From Candidatus Cloacimonadales bacterium (GTDB lineage Bacteria; Cloacimonadota; Cloacimonadia; Cloacimonadales; JAFGVF01): a DNA stretch of 64,000 nucleotides. The notes below the pieces were generated by a model, which saw only the letters and a program-made list of their open reading frames with translations, was not told the DNA's origin and did not search any database. Positions 39,733-50,232 of the stretch are shown one piece after another (position 1 is the stretch's first letter; each line of letters starts with the position of its first letter). The stretch is from NCBI GenBank assembly GCA_963677495.2, contig CAXXOU010000004.1, positions 224,001 to 288,000 on the forward strand. Reading direction: 5' to 3'. The position numbers and the translations under genes are program-made.

Positions 39733-42700
39733 ATGAGGTTAACTTATATCTTATTTGTTTTGATGCTGATGATGACACAATTTCTTTTTGCAGGTGATAT
39801 ACTTGTAACAAATATTGAAAACAGTGTAGAAGTTTCCTATTCTGGGAAAGATAATAAAGATCTTCTTTTAGAAGTACCAAATACAGGAAGGGTTAATTGT
39901 TCTTGGAATATCACTTTACCTGACGGGACAATATATAAAGGCATGGGAAATAGTCATCATCATTTAATGAGCACACCTGCAATATATAGGGATATAAGAG
40001 TCGTTGCATTAAATCTCTTTGATATGAGCGATATTGAAAGCATTACACTTATGATAAATGCAGATAACTCAACCTTAGGTCTTAATGAAAAGAATGATTC
40101 AAATAACATATCGAAATCCTACAACAGGATTTATAAAGATAACATTACTAACTACACTCCTCAAAGAAACACAATGAAGGACAAGATTCTTTACTACTAT
40201 CCGGCTAATGTGCAAGATTATGTTATTGAACTTGGTAACTGGAAAGAGAGAACCGGATTTGATGTGGTTTATAGACCTTTAAACGATGTTACAAACAATA
40301 CTGCTTGGATTCAAGATTCTATTCAACAGGAGTATGATTCAGATTATCCACCTTCATATGTTGTACTATTCGGTGATGTTGATGGAGACTATAGTATCCC
40401 AACATTTTGGTATGATTACGCTACAGGTAGTGCTGAAGGTGATCACCCATATACATTGCTTGAAGGAGATGATCCAATCGAAGATATTGCTATTGGTAGA
40501 ATCTCTTTTAGTTCAACTAGTGAACTGGCCACAATAATCAATAAAATCATTATGTATGAAGGAATGCAATACGTACCATTAGGTTGGCAAAATAGAGTGT
40601 TACTTGTCAGTGATACTGATGAATCCGGAATAACTACTCTGACAACTAACCAGTATGTGAAAGAGATTATGACTGAATACAATCCTGACTTTGAGTTTAT
40701 TGAGTTAATTGGAACTGACCCAAGTGTTAGCTTAGTTACAGCAAATTTAAACATGGGGATCTCCTATTTCAATTATAGAGGATTTCTTGGTATGAGTGGA
40801 TGGGATGCTTATGAAGCATTCGATCTTTTGAATGGGCCAAGACTCCCAATTGTCAGTACAGTTACGTGTGATACAGGTAGTTTTGGAAATGGATTGAGTA
40901 GAACAGAAGCCTTCTTGCGAGCAGGCACACCACAGTTACCTGCAGGTGCAGTTGCTTCATTTGGTTGCTCAACTGCTGATACTCATACATGCTATAATAA
41001 TTTAGTAGATGCATCATTTTATGAGGGCTTGTTTGTACATGATATGACTACTATCGGTGAAGCTCTTACGTATGCAAAGAATCAACTCTTCACTGTGTAT
41101 GCTAATTCTCAACCGGAGATGCTTGATTATAATTATCAGATATTTAACCTTATGGGGGATCCTACTACAATAGCTCTAAAAGGTAGTCCCAGGCAGTTCA
41201 ATGTGGATATATCTTCCTATGGTGGAGGGAGAACTTTACCTGTTACGATCACCGGACTTGACGGTCAACAGTATTACTATTCAGTATGCTCAGAAGCAGA
41301 GGGGATTATTGCTTCCGGTTATTCAAACGAGGAGAGTTTAACTCTTCCGGTTGGAGCCGATAGTGCAACTGTAAAACTATTAGTATTATCCGACGGATAC
41401 AAGCCGGTTGAGCATGTTGTTAGTGTCGGAAATGGAGCTACTTTCTTATTTCACAATACTGTAGTTGCCTATGGAGATATAGAAACCGACCTGCTATATC
41501 CTAATATTGAAGCATCAATTGATATAGAATGTTCTGCAAACAATCTGGAATATGGTATCTTTCAAGCTGAATATGAGCTTATTAACAATAAAGGTGAGAT
41601 TATTCATTCAGGACAAACTGAATTTATCAATAATGATATAGCTTGTCATCTAAACAACTATCTGTCTTTACCGGCTTTTAGTAAGCAACAGCTTACTGAT
41701 AGATTACTGATAAGGTGTTCTGTTGAATGCTATGGGAATCCTACTTTTGATGCTGAAATAGATGTCTTTACCGGAAGTATAAACATATCACATAGATTTG
41801 ATAACACAAATGGAATAGAAGCAATCTTAGGTGAAACAACAAGATTAGTGATTGATATGGGAAATCCTACTCCAAATGACTTCACGGTTGATTGGCTCAG
41901 CTCTGGTAATGAGGGGCTTCAGTACATTAATACTAATGTCATTGATGCAGATACATGTACTCAGTACTATAATTTCCATTGTGAAGCTTCCTTAGAACCT
42001 AATATGGTTCATTACATACCTATAACATTACAGGCAACTCAATACAATGGGATTCAGTTTAGTTGGACGGAGTATATTGAGTTTCCGGTGATTTACCGAG
42101 AGAATACATCATATTTTGACAATACAGGTCAATACTCAATATATACATCTGTAATGCAAAATGCACCTGAGTTGATAAATACAGAATGGGTTGAGCTAAA
42201 CCCTCAGTTAGGAGGAGCTGGAATAAATACCGGGATTGTCGATGAAATCAGAGAAGGAGACCAAACTGTAACATTAGATTTGCCATTTGCTTTTAGCTGG
42301 TATGGAGAGGAGTTTGATACAATCTCAATCTGTTCCAATGGTTGGATTTCTATGGGCGAAACTCCGCAAATTACATATAGGAATTGGAGATTCCCGGGAC
42401 CATTAGGACCAGCAAATATGATAGCTCCTTTCTGGGATGATTTGATTACTACCGATGGAGGAGTGTTCACTTATTATGATCCAACTAATGAAAGGTTCAT
42501 CGTTGAATGGGATTGCAAAGCAAGGTTCGATGATACGATAGAAAGGTTTCAGATGCAGATGTTTACAAGTGGGGAAGTACTTTTTATTTATGATGATGTA
42601 ACCGCTGTAGATGATACTTATCAATATAGACACGGTTCCTACTTCACTACCGGTTTCGAAGGAGCTAATTCAACTCAAGGATTTGAGTATGTTTTTGGAA

Positions 42701-43683
42701 ATGAGTATGTTCAAGGTGCTACGGAAGTAAGTAATGGTTTAAAGCTACTTATAAAAGAAGCAGATAATCAGCAAAGAACTGCCTTTCTACCTGTAAGTTA
42801 CTATTACCTCAACATGCTTACTGATCAGCAGTTAGATTTAGTGATTCCTATCTGTTCATTAGAAGGTGACTTCGATGTTAGTTTAGTCCTGGATGAGAAT
42901 CAGAATTGGTTAAATATAGCAAGCTTAGATAACTGCAATGTTGTTGAAGGAGAAAGGAGTGAGATAAATCTATCAGTTTCAAGTAATGGTTTAGAACCGG
43001 GAGAATATAATACAACTGTAGGGCTAATTTCAGATAACTTAAGTATTCATGGTTTGCAGATACCAATTATCCTTTATGTCTCCGACATACCACTTGATGA
43101 AATGTACAGTATAGCTCAAATGCCAAATATTGACTTCATCCATAATAGTGATACTAATATCACTGACTTCAATGGTTTTATCAAGCTCGAAGACTATTTC
43201 AGAGGGGCAATAATATCTTACAATATAGAACTCAATCCCTTTGCTACTTTTGTTCAGATTGAAGACGGTTTTGTAAGCTTTTCTGAAGACGTAGACCAGA
43301 ATTATAGTGTGTTAATAACTGCAAATTCAGAACAGACTTCTGCGTCTGGTCAGATTCTGATAAGAGCCTTCGAAGATGTAGATGATGAAGATAACGTACA
43401 AACACCTCAGACATTAGGCTTAACCAACTATCCAAATCCATTTAATCCAACTACAACGATCAGTTTCTCGTTAGAAAAGAAAAGCACTATTACATTAAGT
43501 ATCTACAATATTAAAGGGCAGTTGATCAACGAGTTAGCAGAAGATATGTATTCACAAGGCACACACACAATTGAGTGGGATGGTGCAGAAGAAAGGGGTA
43601 AAAGAGTTACTTCAGGTATCTACTTTATCAGGCTAAAAACTTCAGACTCAGAAGTAGTTAGGAAGGTTGCTTTGATAAAGTAG
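39733..43683 (+). CDS. Secreted C25 (gingipain-like) peptidase with accessory domains and FlgD/T9SS-type tail
   Basis: VLFGD, IAIGRI, FNYRG, VTCDTG, NLMGDP; APFWDDL domain; NYPNPFNP. Confidence 0.85.
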   Translation: MRLTYILFVLMLMMTQFLFAGDILVTNIENSVEVSYSGKDNKDLLLEVPNTGRVNCSWNITLPDGTIYKGMGNSHHHLMSTPAIYRDIRVVALNLFDMSDIESITLMINADNSTLGLNEKNDSNNISKSYNRIYKDNITNYTPQRNTMKDKILYYYPANVQDYVIELGNWKERTGFDVVYRPLNDVTNNTAWIQDSIQQEYDSDYPPSYVVLFGDVDGDYSIPTFWYDYATGSAEGDHPYTLLEGDDPIEDIAIGRISFSSTSELATIINKIIMYEGMQYVPLGWQNRVLLVSDTDESGITTLTTNQYVKEIMTEYNPDFEFIELIGTDPSVSLVTANLNMGISYFNYRGFLGMSGWDAYEAFDLLNGPRLPIVSTVTCDTGSFGNGLSRTEAFLRAGTPQLPAGAVASFGCSTADTHTCYNNLVDASFYEGLFVHDMTTIGEALTYAKNQLFTVYANSQPEMLDYNYQIFNLMGDPTTIALKGSPRQFNVDISSYGGGRTLPVTITGLDGQQYYYSVCSEAEGIIASGYSNEESLTLPVGADSATVKLLVLSDGYKPVEHVVSVGNGATFLFHNTVVAYGDIETDLLYPNIEASIDIECSANNLEYGIFQAEYELINNKGEIIHSGQTEFINNDIACHLNNYLSLPAFSKQQLTDRLLIRCSVECYGNPTFDAEIDVFTGSINISHRFDNTNGIEAILGETTRLVIDMGNPTPNDFTVDWLSSGNEGLQYINTNVIDADTCTQYYNFHCEASLEPNMVHYIPITLQATQYNGIQFSWTEYIEFPVIYRENTSYFDNTGQYSIYTSVMQNAPELINTEWVELNPQLGGAGINTGIVDEIREGDQTVTLDLPFAFSWYGEEFDTISICSNGWISMGETPQITYRNWRFPGPLGPANMIAPFWDDLITTDGGVFTYYDPTNERFIVEWDCKARFDDTIERFQMQMFTSGEVLFIYDDVTAVDDTYQYRHGSYFTTGFEGANSTQGFEYVFGNEYVQGATEVSNGLKLLIKEADNQQRTAFLPVSYYYLNMLTDQQLDLVIPICSLEGDFDVSLVLDENQNWLNIASLDNCNVVEGERSEINLSVSSNGLEPGEYNTTVGLISDNLSIHGLQIPIILYVSDIPLDEMYSIAQMPNIDFIHNSDTNITDFNGFIKLEDYFRGAIISYNIELNPFATFVQIEDGFVSFSEDVDQNYSVLITANSEQTSASGQILIRAFEDVDDEDNVQTPQTLGLTNYPNPFNPTTTISFSLEKKSTITLSIYNIKGQLINELAEDMYSQGTHTIEWDGAEERGKRVTSGIYFIRLKTSDSEVVRKVALIK

Positions 43684-43685
43684 TG

Positions 43686-45122
43686 TTATACTTTAACCCT
43701 TTTCCAACCACCACCCAAATATACAATAAAACTTAAGATAGAGATAAGGAGATTACTGACTACCATAGCCCAGAATAGGCTGTCATAGCTGTATGGTTTT
43801 ACTATATTTGAGAGTCTATCAAACAGATTGGGCATGAGGTTATATATCACAGGGAACTTCTCGTATATTTTACCTGCTAGAATATAGGTCAAAGGAATTC
43901 TGAAGAGCCAAAGTCTTGAGATGTTTAAAAGCATAGTCGGTCTTGTATACCCTGACCCGTTAAAGACTCCATTAAAGACAAAGACAAAGCTAAAGAGGAA
44001 TGTTGCCAATGATGTTATCTTAAACATCCTCGCACCATGTTTTATGACTTCAGGGTCATTTATGAATAGAGAAATAAGTTCACCACCAAAGAAGAAGATG
44101 ATGGAACAACCAAAAGTCATAATCACAACGATAGTACCTAACGCGTGTAAGACACTCTTCTCAGCTCGGTGAATCTTCCCTGCTCCCAAGTTTTGTCCAA
44201 CAATAGACGATAAAGCATTGCTTAAGCCCATTGATGGCATCATGAAAAAACCTGTGAGTCTATTTCCTAGGGAGAATACACTAATAACCAATGTACCGTA
44301 AGTATTAACGAAACCCTGTAGCAGCAAGAAGCCTAAACTGGTTATAGACTGAGATATCGATGCAGGGATGCTTATACTGATAATTGTCTTTAACAATTTT
44401 GGATTGGGGATAAAGTCTTTTGGGTGTGGAATCAGAATTGGTGCTTTCTTCTTTACATAATAAAAGGCTAAGCCTGCACCTAATACTCTGGAAAATACTG
44501 TTGCCCAAGCAGCTCCCATTATTCCGTATGCCGGTAAGAGTCCAAACCCGAATATGGCAATTGGATCTAAGACTATATTACACGAAACTGATATGAGTGA
44601 GATAACCATTGGAGTAATTGTGTCTCCTAAGCCATGTGAGAAACTCTGATAACTCATAAATATGAACATAAACGCCATCCCAATCATGACAATTTGGATA
44701 TAGCTTATAGCGTCAGCTCTAATCGCTTCGGGAACTTGCATTAACACAACAATATTATCAATAAATAGTAAAGCTACTATTAGAAAGACTAAAGTGAAGA
44801 GAGTAAGTAACAAAACAAACTGTCCGGTCACCAGTTTAATCTTCTCAGATTCATTAGCTCCTTTATACCGAGAAACAAGTGCAGTCCCGGCAACCATGAA
44901 TCCAAACCCGAACGCCATAATGGTGAAAACTATCGGGAAAGCTAATCCGACAACAGCAACTGCTTCCAAAGCATCCGTTGGCATTTTACCCAACCAAAAA
45001 GCGTCAGTCAGATTATAGATTGTCTGAATAAGGTTTGCTAGCATTATTGGGAGAGCAAGCTTAATCAGATTAGATAGTATGGGTCCGTTTGTTAGGTCTT
45101 TACCTTGGTTTTGTTCATTCAT
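43686..45122 (-). CDS. MATE efflux transporter
   Basis: LTNGPI..LALPIM, YNLTDAFWLG, LDPIAIFG, GQNLGAG. Confidence 0.93.
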   Translation of the reverse strand: MNEQNQGKDLTNGPILSNLIKLALPIMLANLIQTIYNLTDAFWLGKMPTDALEAVAVVGLAFPIVFTIMAFGFGFMVAGTALVSRYKGANESEKIKLVTGQFVLLLTLFTLVFLIVALLFIDNIVVLMQVPEAIRADAISYIQIVMIGMAFMFIFMSYQSFSHGLGDTITPMVISLISVSCNIVLDPIAIFGFGLLPAYGIMGAAWATVFSRVLGAGLAFYYVKKKAPILIPHPKDFIPNPKLLKTIISISIPASISQSITSLGFLLLQGFVNTYGTLVISVFSLGNRLTGFFMMPSMGLSNALSSIVGQNLGAGKIHRAEKSVLHALGTIVVIMTFGCSIIFFFGGELISLFINDPEVIKHGARMFKITSLATFLFSFVFVFNGVFNGSGYTRPTMLLNISRLWLFRIPLTYILAGKIYEKFPVIYNLMPNLFDRLSNIVKPYSYDSLFWAMVVSNLLISILSFIVYLGGGWKRVKV

Positions 45123-45260
45123 GCAGTCACTAAATTATCCTATCAGAACTTGACTATCTTTTTCTTTAACTCATTTAACTGAGTCTGACATTAGTCGCAT
45201 ACCCTATCACGGGTTTACCCGTTGTATATTGACATTATATGATTAAATAACAGGATTTGA

Positions 45261-45405
45261 AAAAGAATAAGGGAAGATGAACAAGCTATATGACCCGTTG
45301 AGTCCACAAACTCGTTAGCCATGTTTAGCCCATCTTCCACTTAGTCTGAACAGTACATTGGGCATTAAAGCCCGTATTTTACAATGATAGACTACTTGTT
45401 CTTTT
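45261..45405 (+). ncRNA. IS110 bridge RNA (target-binding and donor-binding loops)
   Basis: Outer stem 45261-45271/45395-45405, stems ggaagatg/catcttcc and tagtct/agacta, each with an inner hairpin; guide segments match target and donor junctions. Confidence 0.85.
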
Positions 45406-45426
45406 ATTTTTGTAAAGGAGAATATT

Positions 45427-46410
45427 ATGAAAAAGAAAGTGATTGGAGTAGATGTATCAATGGAGAAGCTAGATATAGTGATTTACGATGGGAATAAGCA
45501 CAAGCATTCGATAATTGATAATACTCCAAATGCCTTTGAAAGATTCTTAAAGCGATTTGCTTCCGGCTCTGTTCATATATTCATGGAAGCAACTGGTGTC
45601 TATCACATTCAGATTGCTGTTAAAGCTTATGAACTAGGTCATAATATCTATGTAGTTAATCCTCTTGTTATAAAGAGTTTTTCTGATGCTATGATGAGTA
45701 GAGCTAAGACGGATAAAGTAGATGCTAAGATGATTGCTGAATATGGATACAAATGTGATTATAGACCTTTTACTCCATCATCAAAAGCAAGATTAGAGTT
45801 GTTGGAACTATTAAGAGACTATAACTATTTAATAGAAATACAAACCAAGATAACCAATCGTATTCATGCATATAAGCATGGTTTACAAGTGTCTAAAGAT
45901 GCTCAAAAAGTTCATAAATCACTACTTAAAGAGATCAAGAAAAACATTTTCATGCTAAAGAAAGCCATCGAACAAATAGTAGTTAAAAGCTATCACAGGA
46001 TATATAATAAACTTATTGCAATCAAAGGTGTAGGAATTATGACTATTGCAACAGTTATTGCTTTTTATGAAGATTTCACAGATTTTGAGACATCAAAACA
46101 AGCTATTTCTTTTGCTGGTATGAATCCACATATTCGGCAATCGGGAAAAAGTCTTAGGGGACGCGGAAGTATAAGTCGAAAAGGTAGCCCAGAGATTAGG
46201 AGAATGCTATACTTAGCTGCGGGAGTAGCCAGGATACATAATCAGTATTTTCAAGAGTTTTACGTCAGATTAAGAAGTAGAGGTAAAAGTTATAAGCAAG
46301 CAATAGTAGCTGTGGCCAATAAGCTTCTACGCCAGATCTTTGCCGTTGTTAAGTATGACAGAGAATGGATACCTAATTATGCTTCATTAAAAGAACAACT
46401 TGGTGCATAA
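45427..46410 (+). CDS. IS110 DEDD recombinase/transposase
   Basis: IGVDVS, FMEATG, AKTDKVDA, IKGVG, QSGKS, AVANKL. Confidence 0.96.
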   Translation: MKKKVIGVDVSMEKLDIVIYDGNKHKHSIIDNTPNAFERFLKRFASGSVHIFMEATGVYHIQIAVKAYELGHNIYVVNPLVIKSFSDAMMSRAKTDKVDAKMIAEYGYKCDYRPFTPSSKARLELLELLRDYNYLIEIQTKITNRIHAYKHGLQVSKDAQKVHKSLLKEIKKNIFMLKKAIEQIVVKSYHRIYNKLIAIKGVGIMTIATVIAFYEDFTDFETSKQAISFAGMNPHIRQSGKSLRGRGSISRKGSPEIRRMLYLAAGVARIHNQYFQEFYVRLRSRGKSYKQAIVAVANKLLRQIFAVVKYDREWIPNYASLKEQLGA

Positions 46411-46812
46411 CAATCTGAATGTAATAGTATTGTGGACAAGTATCGTTCGGAGATAACTTATCCACAATCCATGCCTAATGGAGCTCTTCACTTAAGCTCC
46501 AATAGTCGTGGTGTGGAATGTGGGTAAGTTAAGATACTTGCCCATGATGCTATGGAATGTAGTCTGATTTAATATTGTTAAATTATAGAATATTTTATTG
46601 ACGTGAGATACAGTACATGGTAAATCCGTGGAAAGATATCAGTTTAGTACTACACATCTGTCCCGATTCTGTTTAAACTCAAACAATTCTGGAAAATAAT
46701 TGACTTATATGCTTAGTAAGAAATACTGACATCAAACGAAAAGATAGGTTTAGGTTTTTTAATGGTGATGAAAAGCAAGATTTTAATTCTCAGTTCTAGA
46801 AGGTTTAATAAA

Positions 46813-46850
46813 TAAAGAGCATTTGTCTACAGACAGATGCTTTTTTTATT
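46813..46850 (+). terminator. Terminator-like hairpin just upstream of nadC
   Basis: agagcatttgtc / gacagatgctttt followed by T run, abutting the RBS. Confidence 0.65.
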
Positions 46851-46860
46851 GGAGTGAAAT

Positions 46861-47682
46861 ATGAATATCAAAGAGCTTGTACAACTTAGTCTTGATGAAG
46901 ATATATTTACAGGTGATGTAAGTACTGATTACCTTGGGCTGGGTAAAAGTACTGCTACAGCTAAGTTTGTTGTAAAGAAATCCGGTGTAATTTCAGGTCT
47001 TGATGTAGCGAAAACTGCTTTTGAATGTGTAGATACAAATACTGACTTTATTGCTCATGTTTCGGATGGTTCCTTTGTTGAAAAGGGAACAGTTATTGCC
47101 TCAATTACCGGGTTGTCTTCATCACTTCTTAAAGCTGAAAGGGTCGCACTTAATTTTATTCAAAGAATGAGCGGTATCGCAACTTTAACTCATGAGTTTG
47201 TAACTGTTCTGGAGGGGACAGGTTGCAAGATTTTAGATACTAGAAAAACAACTCCTTTACTTCGAGAAGTTCAGAAGTATTCGGTGAGAATGGGTGGTGG
47301 ATTTAATCATCGCTTTGGACTCTATGATATGATTATGCTTAAAGAAAATCATATCCGTGCCGCAGGTTCTATTACAGAAGCTGTTAAACTTGTTAAATTG
47401 AGAAACACTTCCTACAAGATTGAAGTGGAAGTCACGAACTTACAGGAACTCGATGAAGCTGTTTTAGCAGGTGTAGACAGGGTTATGCTAGATAACATGT
47501 CATTAGAACAAATGCGAAAAGCAGTTGAACTGTATAAGGGAACTGTTGAACTGGAAGCATCAGGAAATGTAACTCTAAAAACTGTTAGAGAAATTGGCTT
47601 AACAGGTGTAGATTTTATCTCAAGTGGAGCACTAACTCACTCTTATACTTCACTTGATATCAGTATGTTATTTAATGAATAA
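46861..47682 (+). CDS. nadC: Quinolinate phosphoribosyltransferase
   Basis: ERVALN, DTRKTTP, NHRFGL, MLDNM, EASGN. Confidence 0.97.
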   Translation: MNIKELVQLSLDEDIFTGDVSTDYLGLGKSTATAKFVVKKSGVISGLDVAKTAFECVDTNTDFIAHVSDGSFVEKGTVIASITGLSSSLLKAERVALNFIQRMSGIATLTHEFVTVLEGTGCKILDTRKTTPLLREVQKYSVRMGGGFNHRFGLYDMIMLKENHIRAAGSITEAVKLVKLRNTSYKIEVEVTNLQELDEAVLAGVDRVMLDNMSLEQMRKAVELYKGTVELEASGNVTLKTVREIGLTGVDFISSGALTHSYTSLDISMLFNE

Positions 47683-48480: not shown

Positions 48481-50232
48481 TTATTTTAAAAGTACCATCT
48501 TGTATGCTTCGCTGAAGCTACCATTCCTTACTCTTACAAAATATATACCTGATGGCATTGTTGAATTTTTCCTATCTTCTCCGGCCCAATCAATAGCACT
48601 AGGACCTGCTTTTAAACGTTTTCCATCAATCAAATTTGCTACTCTACGTCCTTTGATATCATAGATAGACATGTAAACAGGAGAAGTTTCATCTACAACA
48701 TTGAAACTGATTGTAGTTGATGGATTAAATGGGTTTGGATAGTTCTTCAGCCTTAGTTCTTTTGGTACTACATGTGCATCAGCAATTGAAAGAGGTTCCG
48801 GTGTCATATATCCGGCTTTAATCATCCAGTTGGCTTGCATATAACTCAGGTTCATCCACTGACTCCCAAAGCATGCCCAAGTTCCGTTATTGAAAACTTG
48901 TGGTCCCTGATCCTTCCACACGATCTTGCCTGTTTCATTATTAGTAACTCTATATCCCAAGAAATACTCAGCATCACTATTAATCAGGATTGGCACTTCA
49001 AGATTGTGAGTAAACCATGTATCAGCCTGTAGTACCTCTACATCCTGTTCATAAATAATACTTCCGGGAAGCATCTGCCCTGTAGTATATTCGTAAACAA
49101 ACATTGTTATATCACAACTATCTGTTGTTGTTGGAGCATAGAAAGAGATGTCGGTGAATATCTTTATATCTGTTTCGGGTATATCTTCAGGTAACACTCT
49201 CAATGCAACATTACAAGGATTGGCAGTGTTCAAACTGTGTATTTCATGCGGATCTGTGCAGACAGAGAACTCATAATGATTATCCATTTCAATTAAACTC
49301 AAATCAATATTCGTGTTATCACTATCAATTGTAACAACTTCGGAGGTAAAATGCATTCGATCTCTATAAGCAGTAACTGTATAAGTTCCGGTTGTAAGAC
49401 CGTTAAAGCTAAATAAGCCAGTAGAATCAAGAGTTGTTGTCATTGAAGTATTGCCCTCTAGTACAACTGTTGTACCAGATAAATCGATTCCCGGGCATAC
49501 AACTGAACCTGTAACTTGAAGATTAATATTCTCAAGTACTGCTTGAATAGTTATCTCTGCAGCTTGAACACAATCAGCTAAAGGTAATCCTGCATTTACA
49601 TGTGTGAATCCTGCAGCATAACAGCGATGTGGATCGTCCGGTGATGAATGCTGATCCTGATACCACATACCAAGATACGCCATAAACTCACAAAGATAAT
49701 TTCCCATATCACCATCCCAATCAATCCAGGCATTAATGGTTGTTAAACTGTTAACTGCTTCCATCATCTTTTCCATCGGTAATGTAGAATATCTGTTTGT
49801 TCCAACAGGGACTGTATCATCTGGAGGAGAAGGTGTTGGTTGGTATGGTGCAATATCGTCAGGAACCCAATAGTCATTATTTGTTGCAAGATGCTCAATT
49901 TCCCATGGCCCGGCACCGGCGCCAAAGCTAATTATTGCAACGGGATGTAATGTATCCGCAACTGCCCAAAAGTCTTCCCAAGTATCTTGATAATCTACTT
50001 CAAAGTCTCGCACATTTGGTGGTGGGAAGAATGAGTAGATATCATACCCTAGATTATTCCAGTTAGCTCCATTCCAGCCACTGGGATTTAGAGATGGATC
50101 GGTACTGAACTGCGATACCATTGATCCCGTAGGATCCCAATATCCAGTGACCATTACGTTCGGTAAACGGTCTTCAGAATACAATGCACTAAACATTAAA
50201 ATGCTTATAACAACGAATAAAATCCTTTTCAT
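48481..50232 (-). CDS. Secreted pyroglutamyl-peptidase I (C15)-like protein with FlgD/T9SS-type tail
   Basis: Signal peptide, VMVTGY, EIE, GNYLCEF, AGFTHV; NYPNPFNP. Confidence 0.78.
   Translation of the reverse strand: MKRILFVVISILMFSALYSEDRLPNVMVTGYWDPTGSMVSQFSTDPSLNPSGWNGANWNNLGYDIYSFFPPPNVRDFEVDYQDTWEDFWAVADTLHPVAIISFGAGAGPWEIEHLATNNDYWVPDDIAPYQPTPSPPDDTVPVGTNRYSTLPMEKMMEAVNSLTTINAWIDWDGDMGNYLCEFMAYLGMWYQDQHSSPDDPHRCYAAGFTHVNAGLPLADCVQAAEITIQAVLENINLQVTGSVVCPGIDLSGTTVVLEGNTSMTTTLDSTGLFSFNGLTTGTYTVTAYRDRMHFTSEVVTIDSDNTNIDLSLIEMDNHYEFSVCTDPHEIHSLNTANPCNVALRVLPEDIPETDIKIFTDISFYAPTTTDSCDITMFVYEYTTGQMLPGSIIYEQDVEVLQADTWFTHNLEVPILINSDAEYFLGYRVTNNETGKIVWKDQGPQVFNNGTWACFGSQWMNLSYMQANWMIKAGYMTPEPLSIADAHVVPKELRLKNYPNPFNPSTTISFNVVDETSPVYMSIYDIKGRRVANLIDGKRLKAGPSAIDWAGEDRKNSTMPSGIYFVRVRNGSFSEAYKMVLLK

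Follow-up and report, generated by a model that had tools for sequence, protein, structure and literature searches.

Evidence for an intact IS110-group element with an IS621-type bridge RNA and an N-T core in a Candidatus Cloacimonadales bacterium

The 64,000-nt stretch of Candidatus Cloacimonadales bacterium DNA analyzed here (contig CAXXOU010000004.1; hereafter the window) very probably contains, at 45223-46618, an intact insertion sequence of the IS110 group with an IS621-type bridge RNA at its left end and a core of the form N-T. As judged from the sequences, the core reads AT in the donor and GT in the target, which places the crossover one base to the left of the TG core proposed in an initial annotation of this DNA. 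This conclusion is carried by the anatomy of the element, the covariation of its RNA fold, the covariation of its guides with its flanks, the register of its core and two insertions into targets of the same type. We infer that the element may also be reprogrammable and active.

The element, its copies and its recombinase

The ends of the element were set by empty paralogous sites and by relatives, the latter from the 10 of 232 same-phylum genomes that gave a match at E <= 1e-40.

45223..46618, + strand: IS110-group insertion sequence, 1,396 bp, from the first RD base (TGTATATTGAC) to the donor core AT
45427..46410, + strand: gene for the 327-aa recombinase (RuvC-like DEDD domain plus Tnp domain)

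The upstream neighbor is a MATE-type efflux gene on the minus strand (43686-45122), the downstream neighbor is a gene at 46861-47682, and the right end of the element is 208 nt long. Elsewhere in the window, two large secreted-looking proteins (39733-43683 and 48481-50232) have in common a C-terminal module of about 80 aa (…NYPNPFNP.TTISF…), which may be a sorting signal of the kind that type IX secretion uses.

Four copies of the element are found in the host genome, with identities of 100, 98, 71 and 71%, and none of their open reading frames has an internal stop. The 98% copy is on a contig other than that of the window copy, and the two (copies 2 and 1) are inserted at separate sites of one repeat type; they differ at 26 of 1,396 bases, the first 449 bases being free of differences, and of the 19 differences that fall in the gene 14 are silent and five change the protein. 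The two 71% copies (the sister copies) are identical to each other and are separated by 4,137 bp. Near identity of the 98% pair at two sites, together with the identity of the sister copies, would be signs of recent mobility.

The sister copies (L003 and L004, at C4:1491252-1499676 of the host genome) are in the same local repeat, with flanks whose identity extends over only 76 nt to the left and 197 nt to the right, and an unoccupied copy of the site is situated between them. One relative (L014, genome G170) has a tandem duplication of the element's initial 16 bases (TGTATATTGACATCAT) at its left junction, and the left guide fits the flank of the outer TGTATATTGACATCAT copy.

The recombinase matches PF01548 (5.5e-25; N-terminal RuvC-like DEDD) and PF02371 (3.8e-22; C-terminal Tnp, with the catalytic serine), and its best matches among proteins of solved structure are ISCro4 (5.8e-31) and IS621 (1.9e-30), the alignment with ISCro4 spanning the DVS, MEAT, KTDxVDA and SG motifs. 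Residues D9, E54, D96, D99 and S239 are invariant across nine relatives and are located in the motifs that hold D11, E60, D102, D105 and S241 of IS621, which are given as its catalytic residues in the published account (PMC11208158). A single-protein scan of the genome contigs returned only three distant relatives, of 30-32% identity, which were set aside.

Are the RNA and gene parts of a mobile element, or are they the immobile relics of a decaying or domesticated one, whose guide matches are left from past insertions? A relic could account for there being just two copies despite 77 ACCCGTGGT sites, for the imperfect match between guides and site, for a donor-loop handshake that is half-formed, and for a target core unlike the donor core, but it is hard to reconcile with four copies free of internal stops, with intact catalytic residues, with a 98% pair whose left ends are identical and in whose genes 14 of the 19 differences are silent, and with sister copies that are identical. 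Also, the contigs of the only public runs that contain the stretch, four from one sample and study with no RNA run listed, showed no joint, circle or empty site over 44900-46950, a weak point in favor of a relic because contigs drop rare forms; over the same interval they showed both 98% copies as variants, plus loose ends equal to the flanks of copy 2. We consider a relic improbable. The initial annotation had inferred an intact recombinase and, with both Pfam domains, the catalytic residues and uninterrupted reading frames in place, the element is apparently intact.

Fold and guides of the bridge RNA

RNA and gene share a strand, and the 3′ end of the RNA is 21 nt upstream of the start codon. 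Its parts, and the DNA that they address, are as follows.

45261..45405, + strand: bridge RNA body, closing stem 45263-71 with 45395-403 around the target-binding and donor-binding arms
45299..45314, + strand: hairpin of the target-binding loop, U-G closing pair 45299/45314 and stem gagt/actc (helix 4)
45359..45374, + strand: hairpin of the donor-binding loop, U-G closing pair and stem gggc/gccc (helix 6)
45290..45298, + strand: left target guide AUGACCC with core GU, in the sense of the target top strand
45315..45324, + strand: right target guide UUAGCC (45315-20), core-binding AU (45321-22) and handshake GU (45323-24)
45350..45358, + strand: left donor guide ACAGUAC with core AU (ACAGUACAU), identical to the right end 46610-18 at 9/9 positions
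45380..45387, + strand: right donor guide UACA, core-binding AU (45384-85) and handshake GA (45386-87)
45214..45222, + strand: left target half, LT tttaccc (45214-20) and target core GT (45221-22)
46619..46624, + strand: right target half, RT ggtaaa
46610..46618, + strand: left donor half, LD acagtac (46610-16) and donor core AT (46617-18)

The 145-nt fold has a minimum free energy of -40.5 kcal/mol (z = -4.64; one of 200 shuffles was as good), and contains the stems ggaagat/atcttcc, gagt/actc, agtctg/tagact and gggc/gccc. We aligned 10 distinct left ends from same-phylum relatives. Six helices with 37 pairs in total make up their consensus fold, in which 96.2% of positions are paired and 21 of the pairs are changed on both sides, so that covariation across homologous left ends, which the initial annotation had put forward as a check, is strong. 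In 500 shuffles neither the observed share of paired positions nor the covariation score was equaled, and when partners were slid by 1-3 columns pairing was 35-48%. The closing stem with two large loops, as originally described, is thus confirmed by free energy, z-score and covariation, and the strings that had been cited are all where they were said to be: acccgttg at 45293-300 and 45217-224, acagtacat at 45350-58 and 46610-18, gcca at 45318-21 and taca at 45380-83. The first loop has an additional 5-bp helix (45285-89 with 45325-29) that was absent from that description.

A covariance model built from the 10-relative alignment matched the window at exactly 45261-45405 and matched 28 of 85 further loci, all 28 directly upstream of a gene match. 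Within the host genome, where scoring covered 150 of the roughly 2,449 candidates from a first look, its matches were the four copies of the element only. An Rfam search of 44900-46900 with E up to 10 gave only noise and no bridge-RNA family. At C1:317359 the host genome has a lone string, ...CATGTCAT joined directly to CGTATATTGAC, that resembles the left junction of GTCAT-targeting relatives, and there the covariance model found no bridge RNA.

Each of the four loop strands can be read against DNA at the ends of the element. On the target side, the left guide AUGACCCGU (45290-98) agrees with the flank TTTACCCGT at 7/9 positions in copy 1 and with the flank of copy 2 at 6/9, while UUAGCC pairs with GGTAAA or GGTTAA by way of one G-T wobble, giving in the window five of six pairs with the wobble counted. 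The AU that follows pairs with the donor AT, and with the target GT through a U-G wobble. On the donor side, the left guide has its 9/9 match in the right end, a match that most relatives also have downstream of the gene, and UACA pairs with TGTA at 45223-26, the string UACA-AU being complementary to AT-TGTA at 6/6 positions; in relatives whose element begins with C, not T, an A of this guide is changed to G. In the sister copy the left guide GACCAU adjoins the flank GGGACCAT, and UUUCGAAUGU is exactly complementary to the right junction. The initial reading that four guides match the element's junctions therefore holds for all four loop strands, the exception being the final tg (45299-300) assigned to the first guide: of these letters, the first is the U in the U-G pair that closes the hairpin and the second is the G with which its stem begins (alignment columns 97/112 and 98/111).

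Do the guides vary with the flanks in other insertions? To compare them, we fixed each boundary by the donor loop alone and only then set the flank against the target loop. For the right guide and right flank, 26 of 38 relatives could be evaluated (the other 12 have a right end that is missing or matches at fewer than 8/9 positions), and the mean match was 4.38/6 to the element's own flank and 2.49 to those of others. For the left guide and left flank it was 5.14/7 and 3.02, respectively, in the 21 of 38 that could be evaluated, the other 17 having either a donor-loop 3′ strand that is parsed differently (the AGGAUUGA type) or a contig end. No value as high was reached in 20,000 permutations on either side, which bears out the expectation of the initial annotation that guides covary with flanks, although the relatives are kin and the permutation tests thus overstate independence. 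These relatives span several types of target, among them ACCC-GT-GGTAAA, GGACC-AT-TCGAAA, TTGTC-AT-TCTGAA and CGTC-AT-CCTGA.

The published handshake rule is that the bases after each right guide pair with the non-cognate DNA (PMC11208158). In the window, both bases of the target-loop handshake GU pair with donor positions 6-7 (AC), and in the donor-loop handshake the G pairs with target position 7 (C) and the A is unpaired at position 6 (C), one pair of two. Among relatives, pairing of the second handshake base with position 6 is seen in 17 of 21 cases for each loop when the DNA is the non-cognate one and in 0 of 21 when it is the cognate one, as would be expected if the bases after the right guides are handshake bases, the role they had been given originally.

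Pairing of the window RNA at the two sites it has used is partial, covering 11 of the 15 positions of the RNA's ideal target, and the first three bases of the left guide fit neither site well. The ideal 15-mer itself, ATGACCC-GT-GGCTAA, does not occur in the genome, with up to one mismatch allowed.

The register of the core

The joined ends of the element and its target are best written as donor ACAGTAC-AT-TGTATATT and target ACCC-GT-GGTAAA. In the initial annotation the core had instead been read as TG, in place of the CT of IS621, a claim that is contradicted by the empty paralogous sites and by the shifts of register described below. A TG core would keep the same bridge RNA, with the element at 45225-46616 between the two TGs and an empty site of ACCCGT-TG-GTAAAT, and we regard it as very unlikely. 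There is something to be said for it: TG is found at both junctions of the element and of its 98% copy, and the RNA string acccgttg equals 45217-224 at 8/8 letters. But these two copies are the only ones with TG at both junctions. Their relatives have TG/TT or CG/TC, so that no TG is common to both junctions when the flanks of other copies are compared, as the initial annotation had suggested doing, and what the relatives do have is AT, one base to the left of the TG position, at both junctions. Across the clade the left-junction core is AT in 18, GT in two and TA in one of 21.

Uninterrupted paralogous sites lead to the same register. Their flank 10-mers are separated by GTG in 25 of 37 cases for copy 1 and in 12 of 26 for copy 2, GTTG being absent from all of them, and in the window the empty-site pattern of the TG register had no match. 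For the sister subfamily there is an exact empty site, GGGACC-AT-TCGAAAGG, located 250 bp from one copy and with both flanks identical, which fits the AT register only. Similarly, a shift of one base into the TG frame lowers the guide-flank match on the right from 4.38/6 to 1.15/6, and on the left it is then 1.95/9. As for the 8/8 string, its final two letters belong to the hairpin stem, and the U does not track the first base of the element in five of 10 relatives. The TG reading also predicts a circle junction of ACAGTACA-TG-TATATT (ACAGTACATGTATATT) and an orthologous empty site of ACCCGTTGGTAAAT. When the core is taken to be the repeat common to the junctions of a single copy, the register can slip by one base.

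With the core thus read as N-T, the element conforms to IS621, in which the second base of the core is nearly always T whereas its first base varies (PMC11208158). That the left end is merely a 5′ leader controlling transposase translation, with flank matches due to chance, has a negligible probability: the position of the RNA on the gene's strand, 21 nt before the start codon, would suit a leader, but the loop strands vary with the flanks across relatives, the 9/9 match to the right end lies downstream of the gene in most of these, and the RNA of a relative stands in the published bridge-RNA alignment.

A question raised by the AT register is how an element could insert with unlike cores. Both independent insertions have a GT target core and an AT donor core, GT being kept at the left junction and AT at the right one, and this is the sole unlike pair among the 19 relatives in which both cores can be read. 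Published design rules require target and donor cores to match (10.1101/2025.05.14.653916). In the window RNA the core-binding site of the left target guide is GU and the other three are AU, whose U pairs with A or G. In IS621, according to the published work, the bottom strands are cut four bases from the top-strand cut, and positions 6-9 become heteroduplex regardless; a mismatch at position 8 might then be the same in kind as the designed mismatches at positions 6-7. Also, throughout the clade both partners have C at position 7, which in effect makes CAT the shared string.

It is possible, though less likely than not, that unlike cores are used naturally by this bridge system, together with clade-specific steps beyond the IS621 model. 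The code would then be split, the left target guide spelling G and the U of the right target guide pairing with A or G. The retention of GT at the left junction and AT at the right one in both insertions is what would be expected if it is the top-strand products that are inherited. Any extra steps might, on a reading that we hold loosely, involve RNA or DNA structure at the right end or a register-shifted excision, to which the right-end hairpin and the 9-nt scars described below would belong.

Target repeat, circle junction and known systems

The left target half is part of a palindromic unit in a dispersed ACCCGTGGT repeat. This string occurs 77 times in the genome relative to 8.6 occurrences expected from base composition, and two of the 77 sites are occupied. 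The repeat, seen at 45205-45222 and 46619-46632 and genome-wide, consists of units of about 11 bp (GTGGTYWACCC), often three or four in tandem, and ends in ...CAACCCGTGGTAAAGTATGCC. A complete genome of the same genus (G113) keeps the neighboring genes and has a different spacer without the target repeat, and it offers no empty site there; the absence of the repeat from the orthologous spacer suggests that the repeat itself is mobile or has recently spread. A second palindromic repeat family (ACCATTTCGAAGGTCTAAGGACCATTCGAAAGGT) is dispersed in the host genome, with at least 30 matches.

At two element-free places on the minus strand of C4, near 608549 and 1193748, the 9-letter right tip of the element (ACAGTACAT) stands directly before the sister right target half TCGAAAGG. 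Near 608549 normal target repeat is present on both sides, only nine letters being replaced. CT precedes the replaced block in the target, as it does in the element's right end, so that a deletion shifted nine bases to the left could produce it, and the two places may be scars of aberrant excision.

The following features at the two ends bear on the excised form.

45225..45230, + strand: TATATT, -10 half of a candidate promoter that is complete only across the excised-circle junction
46598..46603, + strand: TTGACG, -35 half of the candidate circle-junction promoter
46424..46553, + strand: long conserved hairpin of the right end, 86% identical between two subfamilies over 132 nt

When the ends were joined by script, TTGACN or TTGGCA was followed after 16-18 nt by TAT(A/G)(T/G)T in 10 of 10 relatives, the spacer here being 17 nt. 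Upstream of the integrated copy we found no promoter of comparable quality. The hairpin of about 130 nt (also in L002 and L020) has four compensatory pairs and is conserved better than the gene, in subfamilies whose elements are 71% identical overall; it is confined to the four copies of the IS, is absent from relatives with right ends of 27-30 nt, and matched neither the RNA covariance model nor Rfam.

We envisage the following cycle. Expression of the RNA would be from a promoter that exists only in the circle, with a start expected about 7 nt beyond TATATT, near 45237, and the RNA would be bound by the 327-aa DEDD/serine recombinase, by analogy with IS621. In the target arm the 5′ strand, AUGACCC-GU, spells the left half and core and the 3′ strand, UUAGCC-AU, complements the core and right half; in the donor arm ACAGUAC-AU and UACA-AU do likewise for the joined ends of the element. 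The recombinase would unite the circle, with its junction ACAGTAC-AT-TGTATATT, with a target ACCC-GT-GGT(A/T)A of the dispersed repeat; both top strands would be cut after the T of the core and swapped, and the junction then resolved, the handshake bases GU and GA pairing solely with the other DNA partner after first strand exchange. This register predicts a circle junction of ACAGTACATTGTATATT.

The IS621 donor is ACAGTAT-CT-TGTAT, with which the donor here, ACAGTAC-AT-TGTAT, can be aligned base for base. Both arms here are contained in one 9-bp closing stem and no separate 5′ stem-loop is seen, a layout that would differ from that of IS621. Protein similarity to IS621 is low (about 30% identity, estimated by eye from the ISCro4 alignment), the cores are AT in the donor and GT in the target rather than CT in both, the target arm has an extra 5-bp helix, and the right end is 208 nt long with a conserved hairpin. 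These differences notwithstanding, the IS621-type architecture recognized in the initial annotation stands, with two loops, four guides, handshake bases and guides that covary with flanks. Features shared with IS621 (PMC11208160, PMC11208158) are a left-end non-coding RNA with a target-binding and a donor-binding loop, 5′ loop strands that are top-sense over 7 nt plus the core, 3′ strands complementary to the core and right half, handshake bases next to each right guide, T as the second base of the core, a promoter (here a candidate one) split across the circle junction, a recombinase that combines DEDD residues with a serine, and a repeated palindrome as the target.

The closest solved relative, ISCro4/IS622 (10.1101/2025.05.14.653916; PDB 9t56), is the best solved-structure protein match and shares the guide and handshake scheme, but it has a CT core, is enterobacterial and has been shown to be active in human cells. 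The IS1111 group, with its seekRNA or right-end bridge RNA, is of the IS110 family and shares the two-loop idea (Extended Data Fig. 10 legend). Its RNA is in a long right end, however, its left end being short; here the RNA is in the left end. Membership in IS1111 (right-end guide RNA, short left end, long subterminal inverted repeats) was rejected for this reason.

The clade is already present in the data of Durrant et al. 2024, as far as its supplement could be searched. Supplementary files 4 and 5 contain clade donors (donor_seq2512-2514, 2659-2660 and 4086; ...ACAGTACATTGTATATTGAC and ...ACAGTACATCGTATGTTGG) alongside IS621-like donors with the pattern ...TAT-CT-TGTAT, and one RNA row of the IS621-seeded alignment is the RNA of relative L019, to which our covariance model links the window RNA (144.6 and 133.7 bits, respectively). 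None of the loop and junction strings of the window itself occurs in the searchable parts of that supplement. In the 31-nt donor windows given there, the clade junction is one or two bases off the IS621 register, an offset that would be expected if the longest repeat had been taken as the core, which is how we read the description of the methods.

The bridge RNA mechanism was described in PMC11208160 and PMC11208158 and extended in later work (10.1101/2025.05.14.653916, PMC13626964 and 10.64898/2026.08.31.748434). With mechanism and architecture published in 2024-2026, and with the clade already in a published data set, our finding is an ordinary one. Bridge recombinases are under development as programmable tools for genome rearrangement, and working orthologues with other core preferences would widen the set of addressable sites. 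In this case a slipped register would have led to incorrect predictions of both target and circle junction, a warning to anyone who decodes such elements automatically. The element described here adds a compact, readable orthologue from a little-studied phylum (232 species genomes in the set used here), with AT as its donor core, and it appears to be a natural example of unlike target and donor cores.
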